Below, in pieces: positions 8,063 through 36,620 of a stretch of DNA of 37,227 nt; the first letter of the stretch is position 1, and every line of letters begins with the position of its first letter. Both the position numbers and the translations under genes were made by a program. Location: IMG/VR virus record IMGVR_UViG_3300029955_000077. The stretch is one strand, 5' to 3'. Origin of the DNA: a virus. The notes beneath the pieces are model-generated. The model had not been told where the DNA came from. It did not search any database and saw nothing but the letters and a program-made list of their open reading frames with translations.

Positions 8063-8136
8063 GCCTCCATCGGCAACTGGATAGTCAACATCGCTTCGAA
8101 CGATGATTAGTGTAAGATCGTACCTTACTGGGGGCA
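8063..8136 (+). tRNA. tRNA-Arg (anticodon UCG)
   Basis: Acceptor GCCTCCA/TGGGGGC, anticodon stem CATCG/CGATG with loop CTTCGAA, T-loop ATCGTAC (A at position 54), CCA encoded. Confidence 0.5.
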
Positions 8137-8144
8137 CCAAGTTT

Positions 8145-8372
8145 ATGAAGATTAATTTTCGAGGACAAATGGTCGAAGATAGGTCTGGTATAGACGAAGA
8201 TAAACAGTATCGTTGTACCGATTGTGGGAAGGTGACATTTGGTAAAGATTTATCTTTAGTTTCTTACCAAACTTCAATGGAAGTAAGGGGAGAACTTGTT
8301 CCTACAGGAGAAATGGTAATTAACACTCGTCTGTGTCCCGAAGATAGAGGACATGTAGTAGAAGAGATTTGA
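8145..8372 (+). CDS. zinc-ribbon protein (75 aa)
   Basis: ATG after the tRNA (the track ORF starts inside the tRNA). Motif CTDCGK...CPEDRGH. Confidence 0.45.
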   Translation: MKINFRGQMVEDRSGIDEDKQYRCTDCGKVTFGKDLSLVSYQTSMEVRGELVPTGEMVINTRLCPEDRGHVVEEI

Positions 8373-8376
8373 TTTT

Positions 8377-8460
8377 TGTGGAGTAAACCGTAATTGGCAG
8401 CGGGCTGCACTGTTAATGCAGTGTCGTAAGACTCTGGGGGTTCGAGACCCTCCTCCACAG
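8377..8460 (+). tRNA. type-II (long variable arm) tRNA with anticodon GUU. The body is Tyr-like but the anticodon is that of Asn.
   Basis: 84 nt. Acceptor TGTGGAG/CTCCACA, anticodon stem CTGCA/TGCAG with loop CTGTTAA, 14-nt variable arm with a GTC/GAC mini-stem, T-arm GGGGG-TTCGAGA-CCCTC, CCA encoded. Confidence 0.5.
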
Positions 8461-8469
8461 CCAAATTTT

Positions 8470-8559
8470 AGCGCTCCGGTAGAACAGGTGGGTCTTCAAC
8501 TCCCTTAGCTAGTTCATCGGTAAACACTCTTCGGGGTTGAAGCCGGGAGTAGCAGCGCT
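8470..8559 (+). ncRNA. long imperfect hairpin, possibly a structured RNA element
   Basis: AGCGCT...AGCGCT bracket an inner CTTCAAC(T)CCC / GGGGTTGAAG stem, followed by AAAAATTTTTA. Confidence 0.2.
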
Positions 8560-8681
8560 AAAAATTTTTATTGGGACGTAGGAAAACCGGCAACCCCACT
8601 GGGTTCTGACCCCAGCGACCAATTTGGTCACTGCATGTTCAAATCATGCCGTCCCAGCCAAAAATGATATTTAACGATTAT

Positions 8682-8753
8682 TCCTGCGTAGCTCAGGGGC
8701 AGAGCGAACGGCTGTTAACCGTTTGGTCGGTGGTTCGAATCCATCCGCAGGAG
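8682..8753 (+). tRNA. tRNA-Asn (anticodon GUU)
   Basis: Acceptor TCCTGCG/CGCAGGA, D-arm GCTC-AGGGGCA-GAGC, anticodon stem AACGG/CCGTT with loop CTGTTAA, T-arm GGTGG-TTCGAAT-CCATC, CCA encoded. Confidence 0.75.
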
Positions 8754-8834
8754 CCAAATTTGGGTCAGGAGGTCGGCGGTCTCGTACCCGATCTTCCCGT
8801 ATACTGTACGCCTTCGGGCTACAGGCAGATGACG

Positions 8835-8872
8835 GGTGTAGCTCAGTAGTAGAGCACCTGATCTAATTTACT
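8835..8872 (+). pseudogene. tRNA 5' fragment (acceptor and D-arm only)
   Basis: GGGTGTA-GCTC-AGTAGTA-GAGC resembles the 5' half of the following tRNA-like gene. No matching 3' half follows. Confidence 0.3.
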
Positions 8873-8960
8873 TTGAGCGAGTTACGTGGAAGGCAACTTT
8901 GTTCATGGAGGGCAACGACCAAAGCGACTCGCTCAATAAGTTTTGAAGTTTGAAGTCATG

Positions 8961-9031
8961 ATACACGTAGCTCAATTGGTAGAGCAGCGCCATTAACGGC
9001 GCTGATGTGGGTTCGATCCCCACCGTGAGGA
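8961..9031 (+). tRNA. tRNA-like gene or pseudo-tRNA with an atypical anticodon loop
   Basis: D-arm GCTC-AATTGGTA-GAGC, T-arm GTGGG-TTCGATC-CCCAC. The anticodon stem GCGCC/GGCGC encloses a 6-nt loop ATTAAC. The acceptor pairs weakly (ATACACG/CGTGAGG) and no CCA is encoded. Confidence 0.3.
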
Positions 9032-9111
9032 AGGCTTCTTGGGAGAAGATAGACACTTGATCAGTGGACCGTTTCGTGAAATCCTTCAATCCCACCGGTT
9101 TTAGAAAGTTT

Positions 9112-9184
9112 GCGTTGGTAGCTCAATTGGCGGAGCACTCGACTCTTAATCGATAGGCTGTGGGATCGTTGCCCACCCAGCGCA
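9112..9184 (+). tRNA. tRNA-Lys (anticodon CUU)
   Basis: Acceptor GCGTTGG/CCAGCGC, D-arm GCTC-AATTGGCG-GAGC, anticodon loop CTCTTAA, T-arm GTGGG-ATCGTTG-CCCAC, CCA encoded. Confidence 0.6.
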
Positions 9185-9228
9185 CCAAGATTTAGGAATT
9201 GATTATAAGCCAGTAAGCGTGTATTATT

Positions 9229-9381
9229 ATGATTGACCCAAATCATCTCTACACTTTGCATCAGACATACACAGGAACTGATTGTGCTTTGTGCGGGAAG
9301 CCAGCGACAGAGCATCCATTAGAGTATTGGATGATTAACGGTAAACAACAAGAATTAGTTAGAATTCATATTGGGGAATGA
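9229..9381 (+). CDS. small CxxC protein (50 aa)
   Basis: ATG ORF with CALCG. Its 3' end overlaps tRNA-Phe by 9 nt. Confidence 0.25.
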   Translation: MIDPNHLYTLHQTYTGTDCALCGKPATEHPLEYWMINGKQQELVRIHIGE

Positions 9382-9445
9382 GCTAGTAGGGTTATAGCGT
9401 TCCGCTGAAGACGGAAAGAATCCAGTTCAACTCTGGGATTCCCCA
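9373..9445 (+). tRNA. tRNA-Phe (anticodon GAA)
   Basis: Acceptor GGGGAAT/ATTCCCC, D-arm GCTA-GTAGGGTTA-TAGC, anticodon stem TTCCG/CGGAA with loop CTGAAGA, T-arm TCCAG-TTCAACT-CTGGG, CCA encoded. Confidence 0.7.
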
Positions 9446-9545
9446 CCAAATTTAAAAAGGAGAAGTAAAATGAACTACATGAATTTAAAACAGGAGGTAC
9501 AAAATATGCATACTCATTAAGATACTGCAAAGGAGCGGTAGAACT

Positions 9546-10361
9546 ATGCGCCCAGACATGGCCAAACTCCTCACTGAAGCTGAGAGGTACGGTTCAAAAA
9601 ACCGATCTCAGAAGTGGGGTAAGCGGTTCAAATATAACCCTGATTCGGACTACGATGATCAACCATATCGTGCTTCGATGTCCCGACATCGGCAAGATGA
9701 CTGCGGGAAAAACCTTAGCGATGTACTCAACCCATTAAAGGGTTATCTCCACAAAAGCGTGGGACGCCATTGGGATGATGTCTACAGTGAAATTTGTCAA
9801 AACCTTGATCGTCGTAGTGTAACTGGATTACATGTATTCACTCATCTTTGGCAATTCGTAGCCAAAAATACTGTGATGTGCATTGACGGAAAGGTACGAG
9901 AATGGGCCGGTGGTGGCGGCTATTTGACTGAGCCCTATAATTATTATATCCACCCATATACCGGGATTTTGTGCGACAGTGGGTACAGCGGATGGCGCGA
10001 ATGGCGGCGCAGCAATCGCACCAGGAAAGAAAAGCCCGTCACCGAGATTCGACTTTCGGACATCGGGCGTTACGAGAAGTTCGACGGCATCTGGTACTAC
10101 TGCGAGAACTACGCTATCAAGCACGAGGGCAAGACGCTGATTCGTCCGGGCTATTTCCGGGTCAATGACGCCATCAAGATCGATGGCGAAGTCAACGAGG
10201 AAGGCGAGCCCTTGGTTTTTTACTTAATCAAATGGACTGAGCACATCAGCACGAAACGCCAGCTTAACCGGAAAGAACTGAAAAAAGCAGGATTGAAAAA
10301 TGACCCTCCGAATCCTAAAGCTTTCAGCAGACGGGAACGAAAGGCTTTGGAGAGAAAGTAA
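9546..10361 (+). CDS. hypothetical protein (271 aa) with a compositionally mosaic C-terminal half
   Basis: Long ORF. The segment at roughly 9960-10215 is markedly more GC-rich than the N-terminal half. Confidence 0.6.
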   Translation: MRPDMAKLLTEAERYGSKNRSQKWGKRFKYNPDSDYDDQPYRASMSRHRQDDCGKNLSDVLNPLKGYLHKSVGRHWDDVYSEICQNLDRRSVTGLHVFTHLWQFVAKNTVMCIDGKVREWAGGGGYLTEPYNYYIHPYTGILCDSGYSGWREWRRSNRTRKEKPVTEIRLSDIGRYEKFDGIWYYCENYAIKHEGKTLIRPGYFRVNDAIKIDGEVNEEGEPLVFYLIKWTEHISTKRQLNRKELKKAGLKNDPPNPKAFSRRERKALERK

Positions 10362-10430
10362 GTATTAGGGGGTATGAGCAGAATGCAAAATGTTTTAGGC
10401 TTTTAGACTCCTTAGAAAGGAAGGTAAATT

Positions 10431-10976
10431 ATGGCAGACACTTTAATTCTTGACCAAAACTGGCAACCACAGTCTTTTTGTAACTGGCAGAACGCTGTGA
10501 AATTGATATATGAAGGGCGTGCTCAAGTTATCAAAGAAGACGAGGGTGGGCGCATTTTACGGTCTCCTTCTCTGGAATGGAAGATGCCAAGGGTTATTGT
10601 TGTCAAAAACGCTTGGGTTCGTAGGAAGCGTTTGTCCGTTCCTTTCTCCAGACGCAACATCGCGGTTAGGGATAATAGCGGGTGTCAGTACTGCGGTAGG
10701 GTATTGAAGACTCAGGAATATACTCTTGACCACGTAATGCCTCGTTCTCAAGGTGGTGTATCTTCATGGACCAATTTGGTGCTCGCCTGTGTGCGCTGCA
10801 ACAAGCGTAAGGCCGGTCAGACACCTAAGGAAGCTGGCATGCACTTACTTAAGCAGCCCGTGGAGCCGAAGAAGGACGATCCGAAGTACAACTTCAAGCT
10901 TCACATTAACAAGCTACGGCCAGAATGGAAAGAGTGGGAAACCTGGCTATATTGGAATGTGGAACTAGAAGCGTAG
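10431..10976 (+). CDS. HNH endonuclease (McrA-like)
   Basis: GGAAGG Shine-Dalgarno site. Motif CQYCG...LDHVMPRSQGG...NLVLACVRCNKRK. Confidence 0.8.
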   Translation: MADTLILDQNWQPQSFCNWQNAVKLIYEGRAQVIKEDEGGRILRSPSLEWKMPRVIVVKNAWVRRKRLSVPFSRRNIAVRDNSGCQYCGRVLKTQEYTLDHVMPRSQGGVSSWTNLVLACVRCNKRKAGQTPKEAGMHLLKQPVEPKKDDPKYNFKLHINKLRPEWKEWETWLYWNVELEA

Positions 10977-11074
10977 AAGCTTTGACACGATCCTTTACGT
11001 GTCACATCTGGTCCCGGATGTGCTGACCCAGCTTAAAGGGTAGGGACTACCAATTTATGAACGGAAGTTGAGCC

Positions 11075-11148
11075 ATCCTCGTACCGGCCTCGTTTCCTAA
11101 ACGAGTAACCGTAAAGGAGCAATGTGGGTTCGAGTCCCACCGAGGATA
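11075..11148 (+). tRNA. tRNA-like element with a CCU anticodon-like hairpin and no canonical D-arm
   Basis: 74 nt. Perfect acceptor ATCCTCG/CGAGGAT, T-arm GTGGG-TTCGAGT-CCCAC, CCA encoded. A CTCGT-TTCCTAA-ACGAG hairpin sits where the D-arm should be, followed by an 18-nt extra segment. Confidence 0.3.
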
Positions 11149-11158
11149 CCAGGTTTTT

Positions 11159-11333
11159 ATGTACATCAAATGCAGCATATTCGATGTGGATTTGGATCAT
11201 GTATTTGATGAGCTGCTTTTGCAGTTGACAGAAATAACACTTCCTGATACACTGGAACTTGATGATCGAAAGATAGATAATCAAGAAGATTATAAACTAC
11301 GAGAGTATTTATTGAAGGCTACAAAATAAGCAT
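11159..11333 (+). CDS. possible small acidic protein (58 aa)
   Basis: ATG ORF whose stop lies inside the start of the dispersed repeat. The Shine-Dalgarno site is weak. Confidence 0.2.
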
Positions 11334-11547
11334 TGAAGGTCTTGCGAAAACCAAGCTGGCTAAATCAATGCTGGATGTTGCATTCGGGAAATAAGAATTA
11401 AGAATTCTCGACGCCTTGGGATACATGGAGTCGTTAAACGACTGCGGACAGTGTGTAAGTCTGGCGAAAGCCAGCAGCGCTGGTTGAAACAGTTAAGGGC
11501 GGCGTTAGCCGCCTAGAATCTCCCGCCTTTAGGCGTGGGAGTATCAA
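11314..11547 (+). repeat. dispersed structured repeat, copy 1 (234 bp)
   Basis: About 85-90% identical to 36408-36620, with two small insertions. It contains conserved hairpins GTCG-TTAAA-CGAC and GGCGGC-loop-GCCGCC. Confidence 0.8.
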
Positions 11548-11631
11548 TATGATGGTAATTCTTAACAACACGCTCACCACGCTTCACCTCAGACCTAAAC
11601 GCTAAATTTCCGCGTTCAAAAATCTCTAAAT

Positions 11632-11703
11632 GCCTCTATCGTCCAACTGGAAGGGCACCGGCCTTCTAAGCCGTGGATCCGGGTTCAAGTCCTGGTGGAG
11701 GTA
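11632..11703 (+). tRNA. tRNA-Arg (anticodon UCU)
   Basis: Acceptor GCCTCTA/TGGAGGT, D-arm GTCC-AACTGGAA-GGGC, anticodon loop CTTCTAA, T-arm CCGGG-TTCAAGT-CCTGG, CCA encoded. Confidence 0.65.
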
Positions 11704-11717
11704 CCAAAAATTTTAAT

Positions 11718-11790
11718 GCCCCCGTAGCTCAGTTGGTAGAGCCACCGCCTTTTAAGCGGAGGGTCGCTGGATCGTTCCCGGCCGGGGGTA
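11718..11790 (+). tRNA. tRNA-Lys (anticodon UUU), copy 1
   Basis: Acceptor GCCCCCG/CGGGGGT, D-arm GCTC-AGTTGGTA-GAGC, anticodon loop CTTTTAA, T-arm GCTGG-ATCGTTC-CCGGC, CCA encoded. Confidence 0.65.
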
Positions 11791-11799
11791 CCAAACTTT

Positions 11800-11872
11800 G
11801 GGTGTATCGTCTAATGGCTAAGACCCCGATCTTTTAAATCGGCCGATTTCGGTTCGAGTCCGAATGCACCCA
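11800..11872 (+). tRNA. tRNA-Lys (anticodon UUU), copy 2
   Basis: Acceptor GGGTGTA/TGCACCC, D-arm GTCT-AATGGCTA-AGAC, anticodon stem CCGAT/ATCGG with loop CTTTTAA, T-arm TTCGG-TTCGAGT-CCGAA, CCA encoded. Confidence 0.7.
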
Positions 11873-11961
11873 CCAAATATTCTACTTGACAAATTCCCTT
11901 AAAACCTCTTAAAGTAAAAATAGGTAACCGAAACCTCGTCAGACCAACCGGAGATGTTTTA

Positions 11962-19148: not shown

Positions 19149-19333
19149 ATCTAATATAATTCTGAAACGTGCTCTCCCGTAGGGACAGATGTAAGTTTGG
19201 GTTATGGTTGGTAACTGAAGAAGGGTCATAGGCAAAATCTCCTCTGGACTCAGTATTTGATAAAGTGGGCAAATAAATTGCCCTTACTATCTAAAGGGGT
19301 GTATAGATAGAAAAATAAGGATAATTGATTATT

Positions 19334-20857
19334 ATGGCAAGCGAAAATGATGGTAATGTTGTACTCAAACGTATATTTGGAATGCTGGCTGACAAGGTTC
19401 GCATCTATCAAATTTTAGAAGAAACTGAAGTGCAACGAGACGAATTTGTTTACTGTCAAATTATGCATCAAATTGTTTTTGGTGAAAACGGTTTTACAAA
19501 AACATTAGGGCATGTTTGGGGTATGGTACATGACCCCCGTTTCCAGGAAATAGAAAATTTAATGATTGTAGATCGCCACGCTATTTTCGGTGGTGATGCT
19601 CGATTAGGTAAGCAATACATAAATGACGATGGAACTTTTACTTCTCCTATATCTGATCTGGAGAAGTATTCTGAGATTGTTGGTGAAGGAAGGAATTTTC
19701 ATAATGTTCTTACTCACCCCGATGAAAAATGTCCTCAACGGTTGTGGTTAGAACGAATTCATCGCGGCTTTACAAACATTAAACCTCACTCCACTCTTCA
19801 ATGTATTTGTGCTACCGGTAAAGAAAATCCCACTACATTTAAAGATATGCCCGATGAAATTATATGGGCATTGATTAAGCAAGAATGCCCCAATCGTGGG
19901 TTCAATGCTGACAAAACTCCCAATGCCTACGGTCAATTGATGTATGATCTTATTCGAGCGGATATTATCGGACTTATTCATGATTATGCGGAGACTCCTT
20001 TGATTGACAGTTATGTTTATTTAAGAGATAACGGCATTATTAAGTACACAGAAACAGAATCCGTAGCTTCAATAGACCCGTTTGGTTTAGAAAATCCCAG
20101 AGTTCTTCAAGAACTAGATATATTGGAACAGGCCCTTACTCACCGTGCTACTTTGCGAATGACGGCCTTAAAAATTCTCAAAAAAGCAGGGCTACAAAAT
20201 GAAATCCGTGAGGCTGATTTAACGGATATAGAACGGGATGAATTGTTATGTTTAATATACAGTCATGATTACCCTGATGTTGAAAATACAGATAGTACGA
20301 TGTACAGAGCTGCAATAGATGCTTGGGAAAAACAAATTAAAGAAATTGTTAAAGACTATATTTTATCGGTAATTACAAAAGATTTGAAGGAACGTGAAAC
20401 CGTTCAATTGAATCAATTACAATTAGAGTCTAACGAAGCTGTAGATGGTCTGATGAAAGGAACAATTCAACCTATTAATTCTTACACCGAACCTACGGTA
20501 GAAATTCCTACTGAGCAAGAAGAATCGGAAGTTGTTAAATATGCTCGTATGCTGGAAGCTATTATGGGGAACGAGTTCAAATCCGAACTTTATCTTTTGT
20601 TGATTGAAGCAGAAAGACAAAAAAATACGGCTATTGTAGATTTGTTAACTCCAATATTTCTTACTCCAGATTACCCTTTAGATGAAAAGATTTTTTATAA
20701 TTTCATTGAAAGTATTAGAATAGGTAGTAGAAGTCTGCGAGCGGATCGTCTGGAGGCGATTCGAGGTACGAAGCAAACCGGAATGAACTTAGATCCTGCT
20801 AAGACTACGCAAATCGATGAAGAGTTTCACAGCAAGGATTCACCATTTAGAGGTTAA
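19334..20857 (+). CDS. hypothetical protein (about 507 aa)
   Basis: Long ORF with AAGGA upstream. No recognisable motifs. Confidence 0.6.
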   Translation: MASENDGNVVLKRIFGMLADKVRIYQILEETEVQRDEFVYCQIMHQIVFGENGFTKTLGHVWGMVHDPRFQEIENLMIVDRHAIFGGDARLGKQYINDDGTFTSPISDLEKYSEIVGEGRNFHNVLTHPDEKCPQRLWLERIHRGFTNIKPHSTLQCICATGKENPTTFKDMPDEIIWALIKQECPNRGFNADKTPNAYGQLMYDLIRADIIGLIHDYAETPLIDSYVYLRDNGIIKYTETESVASIDPFGLENPRVLQELDILEQALTHRATLRMTALKILKKAGLQNEIREADLTDIERDELLCLIYSHDYPDVENTDSTMYRAAIDAWEKQIKEIVKDYILSVITKDLKERETVQLNQLQLESNEAVDGLMKGTIQPINSYTEPTVEIPTEQEESEVVKYARMLEAIMGNEFKSELYLLLIEAERQKNTAIVDLLTPIFLTPDYPLDEKIFYNFIESIRIGSRSLRADRLEAIRGTKQTGMNLDPAKTTQIDEEFHSKDSPFRG

Positions 20858-20891
20858 ATGACTACAGACACCCTCTCTTAGAGGGCAATCT

Positions 20892-21233
20892 ATGGCAAAC
20901 TGTTTGCACCTGGAAGTGGATGACGGCTCTGGTTGCGGTGTGAATGTGACAGAGATTAAAGAACCAGCACCAAATGTCGGCAACATCGGTGGAATCGTCA
21001 AATTGATTAATGCGACGGTGAAAACTTATACCCAACTTGTAAGAGAAAATACAGACCCTAAAAACCCCTCACTCCCTCGCCTCCGTCTTATTGGAGGTCA
21101 GTTCGTCCGTATCCCACACAAAAATATCTATAATGATTTGATCGGCCCTTCATATATTGCAGCCAGGGCCTTGGGGTATAGGGGTGGAATCGGCCGCTGG
21201 GCTGACTTGGTTCGAGAAAATATTTCTCTTTAG
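20892..21233 (+). CDS. hypothetical protein (113 aa)
   Basis: ATG ORF. Confidence 0.45.
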   Translation: MANCLHLEVDDGSGCGVNVTEIKEPAPNVGNIGGIVKLINATVKTYTQLVRENTDPKNPSLPRLRLIGGQFVRIPHKNIYNDLIGPSYIAARALGYRGGIGRWADLVRENISL

Positions 21234-21370
21234 CCGAATCCAGTCAACACCCACTAATTCACATGCCACCTTGTAGGGCCCCGTACATACGACCTAAGCA
21301 CAAGTTTACTCTGAGCATCAAAACTTTCCCGGTTATAAGTTGTTGATTTTAAATACTTTAAAAATATCCA

Positions 21371-21396
21371 TTTTCAGTGTTTCCGATGTATACTAG
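21371..21396 (+). promoter_or_regulatory. ttttcagtgtttccgaTGTATACTAggg promoter motif
   Basis: Near-identical to the sequence at 24347-24370 and related to 4244-4260. Confidence 0.5.
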
Positions 21397-21409
21397 GGAT
21401 GGAGGCGAT

Positions 21410-22315
21410 ATGACAAAGAAAAGTAGCTCTGATGTGGCGGCTGATTTGAAAAGTGCAATGGGTTCCGCTGCCGATGCAAAGACTATTCTCGATACACCAG
21501 ATAAGAAAACCGCCAGCCGTTCCACATGGAAGGGTTATATTTCCGCTTTTGGCGTTATGCTGATTCCCGCCGCAACCCTGAAAGCCACTGATGTTGATGC
21601 TATCGAAACCCACATGTACCATAGCGCTGCTTGTCCGAATCGTTTGGTGCAGAAATACACCTGCTCTTGCTGCGACACCGAAGTCCCCAACGCTCGTACA
21701 AACGCCCTTAAGGGTGTAGAAGTGGGGGACAAAGTCATTACTCTCACTCAAGCGGAATTAGACGCTCAGAAGCCCACTAGTGACAAAATTCTCAAAGTCA
21801 CCGAGTTTGTTCCCGCTGATGCGATTGATGTTACCTACTACGAATCCAGCGAATACATCGCCGCTGATAAGGGTGGGGAAAAAGCCTTCGCCACATTCCA
21901 GCAAGCCTTGGCGCAAACGGGGCGTATCGCTATCGGCACCTTCGTAAGCCGCGGTCACCAATACACTGTTGCACTTCGCCCCAAGGGTCAGTATGGTATC
22001 GTCATGTCTTATTTGTTCGCGGAATATGAAGTTCGCAACTGCGGCAAGTGGACGCCTGTTGTTGTCAATCCGGCAGAAGTTGATTTGGTCAAGCAGCTTA
22101 TGACTGAAACCGAACTGGCAAAAGAAGTATTCACCCCCGCCGCCTATGACCCCTATCTCTCTGGCGTGCGCAAGATGATTGCTGCTAAGGCAAATGGTAC
22201 GGAAGTTTGCACCCCGGCTGCGGACGAAGTTCCCAAGGCTACGGATGATTTGTTGGCGGCGTTGAAAGCTACCCTGGAGCAGCAAAAGGCAAAGGCTGCA
22301 AAGGCTGGTGTATAA
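21410..22315 (+). CDS. ku: Ku-like DNA end-binding protein
   Basis: GGAGG site 4 nt before the ATG. WKGYISAFGVMLIPAATLKAT, EFVPADAIDVTYYESSEYIAAD and QQALAQTGRIAIGTFVSRGHQYTVALR parallel the conserved blocks of bacterial Ku. Lys/Ala-rich C-terminal tail. Confidence 0.8.
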   Translation: MTKKSSSDVAADLKSAMGSAADAKTILDTPDKKTASRSTWKGYISAFGVMLIPAATLKATDVDAIETHMYHSAACPNRLVQKYTCSCCDTEVPNARTNALKGVEVGDKVITLTQAELDAQKPTSDKILKVTEFVPADAIDVTYYESSEYIAADKGGEKAFATFQQALAQTGRIAIGTFVSRGHQYTVALRPKGQYGIVMSYLFAEYEVRNCGKWTPVVVNPAEVDLVKQLMTETELAKEVFTPAAYDPYLSGVRKMIAAKANGTEVCTPAADEVPKATDDLLAALKATLEQQKAKAAKAGV

Positions 22316-22337
22316 GGCTGCAAAGGCTGGTGTATAA
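22294..22337 (+). repeat. 22-bp perfect tandem duplication (ggctgcaaaggctggtgtataa x2) across the Ku stop codon
   Basis: Seen directly in the sequence. Confidence 0.8.
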
Positions 22338-22433: not shown

Positions 22434-23108
22434 ATGACAATCTACTATAAACTCACGACGCAAGAAGGAAAGACTCGTAATGAAACTCAATGGGGAGAGA
22501 ATGTAACTCATGAGGCTACGGGAGACATTAAACAAGACTTGTGCTCCAATGCATGGATACATGCGTACACTCATCCCCTACTCGCTGTGCTTATGAACCC
22601 GGTTCATGCAGATATAGAGAATCCCATCCTTTGGGAAGGAAAGGGAGAAGGGGAGGCAAAATTCGAACCCCTTAAATGCGGGTTCAGGAAATTCACTACC
22701 CTAAAAAAAATCCCATTACCAGAAGTAACTGATGTTCAAAAGGTAGCCTTTGGTATTCTCTGTGCTAAAGAAGTTTACAAAGACTCAAGTTGGAATCAGT
22801 GGGCAGATAAATGGTTAAGCGGGGAAGATCGCACTAAATCTTCTGCTAATGCTGCTGCTGATGCTGCTGCTTATGCTGCTGCTGCTGCTGATGTTGTTGC
22901 TTATTATGCTGCTAATGCTGCTGATGCTTATGCTGCTTCTGATGCTGCTTCTTCTGCTGCTAGGGCTGCTGCTAATGCTGCTTATGCTGCTGCTAATGCT
23001 GCTGATGCTTATGCTGCTTCTGATGCTGCTTCTTCTGCTGCTTCTAAAGCTACGGGCAAAGAATTAGATTTTGTTTCGATTGCCCTTAAAGCCATGGAGG
23101 GGAAATGA
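22434..23108 (+). CDS. hypothetical protein with a C-terminal Ala-rich imperfect repeat region
   Basis: AAGGAG Shine-Dalgarno site. GCT-rich imperfect tandem repeats at 22840-23050 encode the motif AANAADAYAASDAASSAA. Confidence 0.6.
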   Translation: MTIYYKLTTQEGKTRNETQWGENVTHEATGDIKQDLCSNAWIHAYTHPLLAVLMNPVHADIENPILWEGKGEGEAKFEPLKCGFRKFTTLKKIPLPEVTDVQKVAFGILCAKEVYKDSSWNQWADKWLSGEDRTKSSANAAADAAAYAAAAADVVAYYAANAADAYAASDAASSAARAAANAAYAAANAADAYAASDAASSAASKATGKELDFVSIALKAMEGK

Positions 23109-23770: not shown

Positions 23771-23922
23771 TGCCCCAACAATGGGAGAGATTACCCCCAG
23801 ATGAAGAAGCAGGAACCCCTGCTTTGTTTCCCCCAGAATCAGACCTTTGCAGAGAATGTGACGGCACCGGAGTGCTGTATGGACAGCTCTGTAAAAAATG
23901 TGGCGGCAAAGGGGAAATTTAG
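23770..23922 (+). CDS. small zinc-finger protein with a DnaJ-like CxxCxGxG motif (50 aa)
   Basis: TAATG overlap with the previous stop. Motifs CRECDGTG and CKKCGGKG. Confidence 0.4.
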   Translation: MPQQWERLPPDEEAGTPALFPPESDLCRECDGTGVLYGQLCKKCGGKGEI

Positions 23923-23954
23923 CCAAAACCCGTGTTTTGGATGTATACTAAGGT

Positions 23955-24326
23955 ATGAGCCCATCTCAGGAACGAGTCTATTTGGACGCTGAGCGAGAAG
24001 AAGGCATCGCTGAACTTCGTAACGACCCCGCGTACAATTTTGCGGAGCCAGAGTGCATAGTTCCCTCAAAATATCATCAATACTTCGTTGACTACGGGCG
24101 CTGCTTGTATGACAAGCTCCCGCTTCGCCAAGAAATGCACGCGTTCAATCACTACAAAAAATTTCACTGGCACAAGTACCCTCGATACCTTGCGTACCAG
24201 GGCGGTACTTGGCATGAAGTTTCTATAGGTGCTTATTTGGCTGCGAAGTTTGGTCATTTAATTCCCGTCGCTATCGTCCACGATCCTAAAAAACCGAAAA
24301 ATAAACGTGCAAAGGCTGTAAAATAA
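23955..24326 (+). CDS. hypothetical protein (123 aa)
   Basis: Preceded by TGTATACTAAGGT, which looks like a promoter plus Shine-Dalgarno site. Confidence 0.55.
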   Translation: MSPSQERVYLDAEREEGIAELRNDPAYNFAEPECIVPSKYHQYFVDYGRCLYDKLPLRQEMHAFNHYKKFHWHKYPRYLAYQGGTWHEVSIGAYLAAKFGHLIPVAIVHDPKKPKNKRAKAVK

Positions 24327-24375
24327 AAGGGTTAGAAAATATCCATTTTCAGTGTTTCCGATGTATACTAGGGAT

Positions 24376-24576
24376 ATGGCAAAGAAAAAAAAGAAAAAAA
24401 GTAGCTCTGACATGGCGGCTGATTTGAAAAGCGCATTGCAGTCGTTAAACAAGATGATTGGCTATGCAAAATACGTCGAAGAAATGGATTGGTGGTATTT
24501 CAGGGAAGAAGTGCAACCGGGTTGGAAAAATGATTTAGCGGAAGCCGAAGCTATTGCGGCAAAGTTACACACTTAA
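24376..24576 (+). CDS. hypothetical small protein whose N-terminus duplicates the Ku N-terminus
   Basis: A copy of the 21371-21396 promoter lies upstream. The first ~20 codons (KKKKKKSSSDMAADLKSAL) parallel Ku's TKKSSSDVAADLKSAM. Confidence 0.5.
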   Translation: MAKKKKKKSSSDMAADLKSALQSLNKMIGYAKYVEEMDWWYFREEVQPGWKNDLAEAEAIAAKLHT

Positions 24577-25229: not shown

Positions 25230-25528
25230 AAATTTTATTTGTCTTCGCACTGCTGGCATTTTCAGGATTATCAATCTGGAGAATAAAAAACTCAGTTGTT
25301 AGTTATCCGCATACGGGGGCTGCTCATACGGGGGCTGCTCATACGGGGGCTGCTCATACGGGGGCTGCTCTAATTGCACCCCCGAGTTTACCACCATGTC
25401 TAGGCAATTGTGAGTTTTGGGGAGATTTTTCAGCTATTCCGACCCCAGAAATTCGTTCCTCTCCGCTATTTGATTCCATCTGCGTAACAGGAAATCCCTG
25501 CAATCAGCGAAAATTGAACTTTATATAA
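25226..25528 (+). CDS. exported or membrane protein with a 4x PHTGAA repeat
   Basis: GTG start overlapping the upstream stop. Hydrophobic N-terminus MKILFVFALLAFSGLSIW. 15-bp tandem repeats at 25311-25370. Confidence 0.45.
   Translation: MKILFVFALLAFSGLSIWRIKNSVVSYPHTGAAHTGAAHTGAAHTGAALIAPPSLPPCLGNCEFWGDFSAIPTPEIRSSPLFDSICVTGNPCNQRKLNFI
25311..25370 (+). repeat. perfect 15-bp tandem repeat x4 (atacgggggctgctc)
   Basis: Seen directly. It keeps the reading frame and encodes HTGAA. Confidence 0.85.
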
Positions 25529-35547: not shown

Positions 35548-36150
35548 GTGGATTTTTTTACGGCCGACTGGCACCTTGGACATAACAATATTATAAAATA
35601 TTGCGATCGCCCTTTCAAAAATACAGATGAGATGGATTCAGTGCTCATTAATAATGTAAACGAAGTAGCAAAACCTGATGACAGGGTATACAATTTAGGC
35701 GATGTGGGGATGTTTAGGGATACTGACAGACTTCGAGCCTATAGACAACGAATTGTGTGTAAAAATGTATTTGTAATACTGGGGAACCATGATCAGCGAA
35801 ACAAGAAAGACATCGCTCGTTATTTCACCGTTCTTCCAGCAGAATATGAGTACACATCAGATGATGGATATAGGATTATTTTAAACCATTATGCAATGCG
35901 GGTATGGAGTTCGTCACATCATGGCGTAGTGCATCTCTACGGGCACTCGCACGGCACATTACCGCCTATTCCAGGCATGGCAGCATACGATGTGGGGGTA
36001 GACCCCCGAAATTATCGCCCTGACTCCCTGGATCAAGTGAAAGCTGAAATGAAGAGACTTTGTCCAGAAGGCAAGACACTGGTAGGAGACCATCATGGAC
36101 TCGACAAAATACGAGACACAATCAGAAACAAAATATCGACAGCTCTGTAA
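35548..36150 (+). CDS. calcineurin-like metallophosphoesterase
   Basis: GTG start with AGGAGA 8 nt upstream. Motifs DWHLGH, GDVG, GNHD, GHSH. TGgTATTATAGAAT lies upstream at 35501-35514. Confidence 0.7.
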   Translation: MDFFTADWHLGHNNIIKYCDRPFKNTDEMDSVLINNVNEVAKPDDRVYNLGDVGMFRDTDRLRAYRQRIVCKNVFVILGNHDQRNKKDIARYFTVLPAEYEYTSDDGYRIILNHYAMRVWSSSHHGVVHLYGHSHGTLPPIPGMAAYDVGVDPRNYRPDSLDQVKAEMKRLCPEGKTLVGDHHGLDKIRDTIRNKISTAL

Positions 36151-36407: not shown

Positions 36408-36620
36408 GAAGGCTACAAAATAAGCATTGAAGGTCTTGCGAAAACCAAGCTGGCTAAATCAATGCTGCATTCGGGAATTCTCGTCGCCTCGGGATACGTG
36501 GAGTCGTTAAACGACTGCGGACAGTGTGTAAGTCTGGCGAAAGCTAGCAACGCTGGTTGAAACAGTTAAGGGCGGCTTTGCCGCCTAGAATCCCTCGCCT
36601 TTAGGCGTGGGGAGTATCAA
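36408..36620 (+). repeat. dispersed structured repeat, copy 2 (213 bp)
   Basis: Homologous to 11314-11547. The hairpin stems are conserved while the loops differ (GGCGGC-ttt-GCCGCC here versus a gtta loop in copy 1). Confidence 0.8.

Follow-up and report, generated by a model that had tools for sequence, protein, structure and literature searches.

The stretch of viral DNA considered here is the 37,227-nucleotide IMG/VR record IMGVR_UViG_3300029955_000077, referred to below as the window, and its subject is a phage-encoded homologue of Ku, a protein that binds DNA ends. The gene is an open reading frame (ORF) on the plus strand at 21410-22315, which runs from an ATG at 21410 to a TAA at 22313-22315 and comprises 301 codons plus the stop. 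Independent gene calls on other contigs also give a protein of 301 residues, and the exact window protein has been recorded from public assemblies (75 blocks), on contigs that reach 50-200 kb. The gene, the regions of its product and the adjoining sequences are as follows.

21361..21400, plus strand: promoter-like cassette 5' of Ku, with TATACT at 21389-21394; its 40 nucleotides recur at 24336-24375, and it is a putative promoter.
21401..21405, plus strand: Shine-Dalgarno sequence GGAGG, 4 nucleotides 5' of the Ku ATG, read from the sequence and kept in the closer relatives.
21410..21523, plus strand: N-terminal extension, residues 1-38, with a basic start, the helix motif SDVAADLKSA and TPDKK.
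21524..22114, plus strand: Ku core (beta-barrel and bridge), residues 39-235, from Pfam, PDB profile alignment and Foldseek.
21611..21673, plus strand: His/Cys cluster (H68, H71, C75, C85, C88) within the core, residues 68-88, a possible metal-binding knuckle.
22115..22279, plus strand: minimal C-terminal region, residues 236-290, with FTPAAYDPY and DDLLAALKATL; the TIGR02772 match runs to the profile end (259/259).
22280..22312, plus strand: basic Lys/Ala tail QQKAKAAKAGV (extended C-terminus), residues 291-301, with 4 lysines in 11 residues.
22294..22315, plus strand: first copy of a tandem duplication, GGCTGCAAAGGCTGGTGTATAA, made up of the last 19 nucleotides of the Ku coding sequence and the functional stop TAA.
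22316..22337, plus strand: second copy, GGCTGCAAAGGCTGGTGTATAA again, ending in TAA; untranslated, and in the +1 frame relative to the first copy.

The product of ORF 21410-22315 is a genuine bacterial-type Ku, since it passed every sequence and fold test for that class. Pfam PF02735 (Ku) matches residues 52-221 with an E-value (E) of 1.8e-29 (103.5 bits, against a cutoff of 25), and PHROG 4873, annotated as 'Ku-like DNA end binding', matches with E 1.3e-28. The NCBIfam equivalog TIGR02772 (Ku_bact) is aligned from end to end (profile positions 1-259/259, residues 37-289) and scores 159 bits against a cutoff of 150, which is a small margin. A profile of the clade to which the protein belongs finds the Bacillus subtilis and Mycobacterium tuberculosis Ku chains in the PDB at E ~1e-33, in alignments that extend through the C-terminal helix DLLAxL; the one with M. 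tuberculosis Ku reaches residue 286. The AlphaFold2 model of the window Ku has a pLDDT (predicted local distance difference test) of 71. The best Foldseek matches of this model are the bacterial Ku structures 9vnq, 9ig8, 9i91 and 8v53, with a probability of 1.0, and eukaryotic Ku70/80 come after them. The template modelling scores, normalised to target length, do not exceed 0.64, which is modest, as would be anticipated when an extended arm protein is modelled as a monomer. A first-pass annotation had named the gene a Ku homologue from three core blocks resembling bacterial Ku, and had suggested a search with the Pfam Ku profile. All three peptides are found within the translation, the Pfam match is unequivocal, and the identification extends to a full-length bacterial-type Ku by three profile libraries, a PDB sequence search and a fold search.

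Bacterial Ku proteins consist of a core, a conserved minimal C-terminus and a basic extended C-terminus (PMC9638933), and the minimal C-terminus has been implicated in recruitment of LigD (PMC9638933, PMC12658125). The length of the extended C-terminus ranges from 1 to 155 residues in bacteria (PMC9638933), and the tail of the window Ku lies near the short end of this range. KAKAAKAGK is conserved at the tail across the clade, with other members ending in ...KAAKAGK. The Lys/Ala-rich tail pointed out in the first-pass annotation is present, although short, and is nothing special: it is how the basic extended C-terminus of bacterial Ku ordinarily looks in its short form.

All regions of the protein are under purifying selection, with the core being the most constrained. 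In one unsaturated pair of relatives, L004 and L009, the ratio of nonsynonymous to synonymous substitution rates (dN/dS) is 0.14 overall, 0.09 in the core, 0.22 in the N-terminal extension, 0.30 in the minimal C-terminus and 0.10 in the tail. For the tail, the computable pairs give 0 (window and L008), 0.10 (L004 and L009) and 0.28 (L004 and L010). Within the core, the aligned clade members show no variation at H71, C75, C85 and C88 and conserve H68, and the H..H...C..C pattern is also visible in the Ku proteins of B. subtilis and M. tuberculosis. The cluster may form a metal-binding knuckle; it gives a weak match of the DksA/TraR zinc-finger type (E 1.3e-4), and the structural papers checked do not mention a metal knuckle in the Ku core.

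What distinguishes the protein is its N-terminal extension, which is absent from the cellular and mycobacteriophage Ku proteins that were compared. Its length across the subfamily is 30-75 residues, with about 38 in the window Ku. In the clade it begins with a basic segment (MAKxKK), continues with a predicted short helix of the pattern [VI]A[DE]LS/K.[KQ]L, and closes with a low-complexity linker that ends in TPxKK..SR[ST] just before the first core strand. P30 is invariant across 20 aligned clade members, and the AlphaFold2 model places the predicted helix at residues 6-16 with low pLDDT. Such a short tethered helix would probably serve as a protein-recruitment or regulatory arm. A role for KKS..DVAADLK as a targeting peptide common to many phage proteins found no support: in a six-frame search of 310 kb, it occurred only in Ku homologues and in one 66-residue ORF of the window.

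A HMMER search of 1.84 billion cluster representatives recovered 10,132 Ku proteins. The best-scoring 40-50 clusters or so (at 50% identity), mostly above ~185 bits, match from within or from the start of the N-terminal extension, 38 of them from position 1-8, and a few truncated sequences occur among them. Below ~185 bits, canonical Ku proteins whose matches start at their own residue 2-5 predominate. Because the N-extended clusters separate from canonical Ku by score, they constitute a distinct and diverse subfamily, and it is to this phage subfamily of ~40-50 clusters that the window Ku belongs on sequence grounds. The closest relative recovered, L008, is 77% identical, while identity to cellular Ku is ~25-30%. 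A cellular origin of the gene was considered and set aside: in a pattern-limited scan of 185,579 GTDB species genomes with two clade-specific motif patterns, no close relative of the window Ku was found.

The gene is carried by an uncultivated large phage, whose relatives are soil and peat phages of 440-465 kb. All sizeable ORFs of the window lie on one strand, and most have no family. Among the others are two genes for HNH endonucleases and one each for an endonuclease VII, a DNA methyltransferase and an SNF2 helicase, and 15 tRNA genes form an array. Upstream of Ku, the gene order is shared with two contigs of 458 kb and 463 kb, the latter an IMG/VR viral genome, and the shared genes are an M24 peptidase, an ADP-ribosylglycohydrolase and two conserved neighbours of Ku:

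19325..21233, plus strand: a 510-residue ORF (19325-20857) and a 113-residue ORF (20892-21233), syntenic with Ku across the phage group.

Neither of these two ORFs has a match in a family search. The coordinates of the 463-kb genome appear to differ between two collections, but this was not counted as evidence of circular permutation, since an artefact of storage may account for it. On the 458-kb contig, Ku directly follows rIIA and rIIB (PHROG matches with E 4e-100 and 3e-67), and a more distant member keeps the rIIB-Ku order. The gene context, the relatives on IMG/VR contigs and the rIIA/rIIB-bearing contigs of 458-463 kb all bear out the earlier statement that this Ku is phage-encoded.

At the DNA level, the window has no similarity to deposited phages. 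Among 50,697 deposited phage genomes, Ku genes occur in 88 records, nearly all of them Mycobacterium phages of the Omega and Corndog groups, and two reviews of jumbo phages (PMC7824862, PMC13282480) contain no discussion of Ku in such phages. The only isolated phage that matches the 510-residue ORF is the Tunturiibacter phage Tunturi_5, a 309-kb jumbo phage of an acidobacterial host (PMC11924767). It is also the only one with homologues of both this ORF and the small ligase described below; no Ku was found in it. The closest named cellular homologues of an amino-acid permease encoded in the window are in Candidatus Angelobacter (Acidobacteriota). Together with the Tunturi_5 homologues, this suggests that Acidobacteriota are hosts of the phage group. 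The hint is not extended to the window lineage itself, because its GC content of 44% differs from the 55-65% of most related phages with the same gene order (exceptions are L052, with 44.5%, and L049, with 48%). The low GC content could reflect a host shift within the phage group.

In seven distinct sister lineages, a family of small ATP-dependent DNA ligases (260-295 residues) is encoded on the same strand as Ku and 2.4-8.6 kb downstream of it:

L049, 13329-14114, same strand as Ku: small ligase, 2.4 kb from Ku.
L004, 14025-14825, same strand as Ku: small ligase, 3.1 kb from Ku.
L052, 12637-13440, same strand as Ku: small ligase, 3.6 kb from Ku.
L019, ~9970-10788, same strand as Ku: small ligase, 5.0 kb from Ku.
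L048, 13165-14016, same strand as Ku: small ligase, 6.7 kb from Ku.
L005, 18763-19584, same strand as Ku: small ligase, 7.8 kb from Ku.
L006, 19425-20246, same strand as Ku: small ligase, 8.6 kb from Ku.

In an eighth lineage, L009, synteny predicts that the ligase would lie ~12.6 kb from Ku. The Ku proteins of the seven lineages range from 64% identity to the window Ku (L004) down to ~35% or less. The ligases match PF01068 and carry motifs I (EKxNGxR), III (DAEYV), IV (EGFVxKD) and V (KFKFWK), with KxNG in motif I in place of the usual KxDG. Their profile matches solved DNA ligases at E down to 3e-14, including the ligase domain of M. tuberculosis LigD (1vs0) at 3e-11. The ATP-dependent ligase domain is the sole family match, and the polymerase and phosphoesterase domains of LigD are therefore presumably lacking. 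Since L049 also holds a separate ligase of at least 447 residues, with an additional weak match to a ligase OB-fold (oligonucleotide/oligosaccharide-binding fold), the small enzyme is not simply the replicative one. In the relatives, RNA ligases (PF09414) are found near the small DNA ligase (L004:16772-17455, L045:6022-7041), which suggests a combined nucleic-acid repair block; the window has an RNA-repair-type gene of its own, a nucleotidyltransferase of the RlaP family at 4441-5274.

Our favoured interpretation, held with some confidence though well short of certainty, is that the phage Ku protects and bridges DNA ends for ligation, and that the duplication at its stop codon is a neutral scar. 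Ku would be made from an independent, probably early, transcript and would form a homodimeric ring that threads onto double-stranded DNA ends. During infection, it would load on phage DNA wherever an end is free, whether at the termini of the injected genome or at breaks inflicted by host nucleases, and would shield these ends from exonucleases, as Mu Gam does. By bridging the ends, it would then allow an ATP-dependent ligase to seal them. In the sister lineages, the sealing enzyme would most likely be the small phage ligase downstream of Ku, while in the window lineage it would be encoded at another place in the genome or would come from the host as LigD or LigA. The first-pass annotation had suggested that a phage Ku could protect or circularise genome ends or recruit a host LigD, and that a LigD partner should be sought in the phage or its host. 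The idea of a ligase partner stands in modified form, with a small phage-encoded enzyme as the likely partner in related phages, instead of or besides host LigD.

Several observations weigh against this interpretation. The window and the lineage contigs, which cover 21 kb upstream and 15 kb downstream of Ku, yielded no ligase, no primase-polymerase and no LigD phosphoesterase, and the same classes of partner are absent from the 10 kb flanking Ku on other contigs of the window lineage. Downstream of Ku, the window lineage shares no synteny with any other lineage. The small ligases have no polymerase domain, and this domain is one known contact point of Ku in LigD. The distance of 2-9 kb between Ku and ligase, in genomes whose gene order is conserved, is suggestive and not proof of a partnership. 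Lastly, the AlphaFold2 model of Ku is of only moderate confidence overall and of low confidence in the N-terminal extension. A sensitive profile search for a ligase remnant in the window and the lineage contigs (ORFs of at least 30 residues, E <=1) yielded nothing. The only phosphoesterase gene of the window, at 35548-36150, was considered as a possible LigD phosphoesterase domain and rejected: its match is a weak calcineurin-like one of 24.5 bits, below the cutoff of 27. As the region downstream of Ku has been replaced in the window lineage, its ligase, if there is one, must lie elsewhere.

The absence of a ligase from the window and the lineage flanks is also what would be expected if Ku acted in end protection only, capping injected or replicating linear phage DNA against helicase-nucleases of the RecBCD/AddAB type in the manner of Mu Gam, with no ligation involved. 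Among phages, end-binding proteins able to block RecBCD are found widely, and Mu Gam is itself a relative of Ku (PMC1378119, PMC12407980). The putative promoter of the gene and the adjacency to rIIA/rIIB in the relatives would fit an early gene. However, Mu Gam keeps just the dimerisation and DNA-binding regions (PMC1378119), whereas the phage Ku retains under purifying selection the full bacterial architecture, including the minimal C-terminus that recruits ligase, and seven sister lineages have a dedicated small ligase just downstream. The retention of the minimal C-terminus favours joining over capping alone. Protection without ligation is rather unlikely, though it ranks first among the alternatives.

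If bridging and ligation do take place, a further and more speculative step may be proposed. The N-extended Ku and the small ligase could make up a self-contained phage end-joining module, in which the helix [VI]A[DE]LS.[KQ]L would recruit the domain-poor ligase, or another phage partner, in place of the contact that bacterial Ku makes with the polymerase domain of LigD. The window lineage would then encode Ku at this locus and the ligase elsewhere in its genome. We advance this tentatively, as a possibility that falls short of probable. Should Ku and the small ligase cooperate, they would form the first phage-autonomous end-joining system known to us. Such a system would account for the survival of very large linear genomes in the face of host nucleases (restriction enzymes, clustered regularly interspaced short palindromic repeats (CRISPR) systems and RecBCD), and would provide a compact Ku-plus-ligase pair for genome engineering.

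A different use of ligation is known from the mycobacteriophages. In circularisation of the Corndog/Omega type, the phage genome would have very short cohesive ends, and Ku would recruit host LigD to them after injection. This is the only experimentally established role of a phage Ku of the bacterial type, according to Pitcher 2006 as cited in PMC12848934. In addition, conventional non-homologous end joining (NHEJ) shows enrichment in Acidobacteria (PMC7719229), the phylum tentatively suggested as host of the phage group. On the other hand, the window Ku is only 27% identical to Omega-type Ku and its clade differs in architecture by the N-terminal extension, the relatives encode a ligase of their own, and the host of a 44%-GC lineage is uncertain when most of its relatives have 55-65% GC. 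Dependence on host LigD for circularisation is thus improbable here.

The N-terminal extension raises yet another possibility, since a clade-specific addition could bring a new activity. The protein could interfere with host NHEJ, either as a decoy that sequesters host LigD or by forming inactive mixed dimers with host Ku, and so stop error-prone repair of phage ends. A recent report describes host NHEJ as acting against mycobacteriophages (PMC12848934). However, nothing in the residues or domains suggests that DNA binding has been lost, the core is under the strongest constraint within the protein (dN/dS 0.09), and the linkage to a phage ligase favours productive joining. We regard interference as very improbable.

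The other striking feature of the locus is the duplication at the Ku stop codon. The first-pass annotation described a perfect 22-bp tandem duplication at 22294-22337 that re-creates the stop, and this is borne out: Tandem Repeats Finder reports a period of 22, 2.1 copies, 100% matches and a score of 92 at 22292-22337, and each copy ends in TAA. By calculation, the number of perfect 22-bp tandem duplicates expected by chance in 37,227 nucleotides is ~37227 x 4^-22, or ~2e-9. The duplication is identical base for base in all ten contigs of the lineage (the window and nine from other metagenome samples), among which are contigs that differ by single-nucleotide polymorphisms and strain variants with different genes downstream of Ku. 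Its presence in ten independent contigs rules out an assembly artefact. More than 25 other clade members, with the ending ...KAAKAGK-TAA, lack it, and so does the closest relative recovered, L008.

Most likely, the duplication is a selectively neutral scar of replication slippage that is now fixed and predates the diversification of the sampled strains. The coding sequence of the Ku tail is a 9-bp periodic repeat, GCAAAGGCT x4, on which slippage can readily occur. That slippage is active in the phage is seen from a 15-bp tandem repeat, CATACGGGGGCTGCT, at 25310-25370 within a 100-residue ORF, whose copy number varies among five strains (2, 2, 3, 4 and 4 copies). Two further perfect tandem duplications, of 15 and 21 bp, are present in the window. 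The duplication leaves the Ku protein unchanged; it is harmless because the first copy keeps the stop codon, while the insertion of 22 bp inside a gene would break the frame. Of the earlier suggestion of a recent slippage event, slippage remains a reasonable origin, given the periodic tail repeat, and recency does not hold, as the duplication is fixed in all contigs of the lineage, strain variants included. The duplication in itself is biologically unimportant, and serves as an example of a frame-breaking duplication that survives only by virtue of its own stop codon.

Two other explanations of the duplicated segment were rejected. An RNA structure or terminator is not indicated, since RNA folding of the segment is not significant (z = +0.83) and its plus strand carries no terminator-like site. 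Nor is it the breakpoint of strain-level insertions or deletions: the breakpoint of the deletion in the strain variants L038 and L039 lies ~70 nucleotides further downstream.

A functional role could be envisaged from the position of the second copy, which lies exactly in the +1 frame and there would encode YKAAKAGV followed by a stop. A programmed +1 frameshift would accordingly add a second Lys/Ala unit to the basic tail; alternatively, the duplication might be a regulatory element for the downstream gene. The number of copies is invariably two in all ten contigs, in contrast to the variable copy number of the other tandem repeat in the genome. This contrast loses force because two-copy repeats are intrinsically more stable than multi-copy arrays. 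The site also lacks any slippery or shift-prone motif and any stimulatory RNA structure, and nothing comparable is seen in the other clade members. A function for the duplication is thus highly unlikely, and the neutral scar is the reading that we retain.

The Ku gene seems to form a separate transcription unit and is directly preceded by a sigma-70-like -10 box. In all clade members, TATACT or TATAAT lies 6-20 nucleotides 5' of the Ku start, and in the relatives an intrinsic terminator hairpin follows the Ku stop codon. The promoter cassette of the window recurs 3 kb downstream of Ku:

24336..24576, plus strand: second copy of the promoter cassette and of the first ~20 Ku-like codons, 84-89% identical, fused to an unrelated 66-residue ORF (MAKKKKKKSSSDMAADLKSAL...).

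In this repeat, the ATG follows TATACT by 6 nucleotides, so that the gene looks leaderless, and in the strain variants L038-L041 a 66-residue gene is called at the matching position. The repeat is probably either the 5' stump of a former second copy of Ku or a shuffled or mobile regulatory cassette that drives gene shuffling in a variable region. A third and weaker copy of the cassette (23916-23977) precedes a 123-residue ORF at 23955.

Comparison of synteny shows that the region downstream of Ku in the window lineage has been replaced and matches no other lineage. Directly downstream of Ku, at 22434-23108 on the plus strand, is a gene for a 224-residue protein with long Ala-rich repeats (AAxAAxDA units, with periods of 9, 12 and 81 bp in the DNA). 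This hypervariable gene is shortened to 209 residues in L037 and L042, and in L038 and L039 a region of ~1 kb (22.4-23.4 kb) that holds it and most of the next ORF, of 93 residues, is missing.

Other features of the window may be noted in passing. An 826-residue protein encoded at 1684-4164 on the plus strand matches the shoulder of the Major Vault Protein (PF11978, E 3.6e-26) and a vault repeat (PF17795), which is unusual in a phage; it has no PHROG or NCBIfam match. The tRNA array extends over 7017-11875, with 15 predictions by ARAGORN and 14 by Rfam, and HNH endonuclease genes are interspersed in it. Among its genes are five for tRNA-Arg, each with a different anticodon (four clustered at 7655-8139 and tRNA-Arg(tct) at 11632), three for tRNA-Lys, and a tRNA-like gene at 8961-9031 with an aberrant anticodon loop. 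A non-coding repeat of ~225-300 bp is found at 11314-11539 and 36408-36611; the two copies are 91-98% identical and 25 kb apart, and one lies beside the tRNA array. The repeat has no Rfam match, and the Rfam scan of the window returned tRNAs only.

The closest known counterparts of the window Ku are the bacterial Ku proteins, such as M. tuberculosis Rv0937c and B. subtilis YkoV (PDB 8v53, 9i91, 9vnq), with which it shares the core, the minimal C-terminus and a basic tail. It differs from them in its N-terminal extension of ~38 residues, in a basic tail of just ~10 residues, and in being encoded by a phage.

The Ku proteins of mycobacteriophages (Omega gp206 and Corndog gp87) match the same PHROG 4873. 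Nevertheless, the window Ku is only 26-27% identical to Omega-type Ku (phages Dallas and Klein) over 79% of the query, and has no match to Corndog-type Ku at E <=1. Corndog and Omega Ku function with host LigD, as reported from Pitcher 2006 in PMC12848934 and PMC4351075. The phages of these groups are siphoviruses of 70-113 kb that rely on host LigD, whereas the window clade is found in much larger phages, with relatives that encode a small ligase.

Like Mu Gam, the window Ku is a phage protein of the Ku superfamily. Gam binds DNA ends and blocks RecBCD (PMC1378119; references 31-33 in PMC12407980), and it can also promote joining with a non-LigD ligase, that of Escherichia coli, according to reference 33 of PMC12407980. 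In contrast to Gam, which consists of dimerisation and DNA-binding regions only (PMC1378119), the 301-residue window Ku has the ligase-recruiting C-terminal region, and a Pfam scan at E <=10 matched it to Ku and weakly to Rap1a, with no match to the Gam family. Judged by these comparisons of sequence, the window Ku falls outside the Omega/Corndog lineage and is not a Gam.

Finally, the sister lineages resemble the NHEJ system of Ku and LigD in linking Ku to an ATP-dependent ligase that has all nucleotidyltransferase motifs and is similar to the ligase domain of LigD. Unlike that of LigD, the phage ligase is minimal, with 260-295 residues and KxNG as motif I, and none was found in the window, which shows only the Ku half of a possible module. 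What the sequences add to the known systems appears to be a diverse, N-extended Ku subfamily in uncultivated large phages of soil and peat, with a minimal predicted ligase nearby in most of the lineages sampled.

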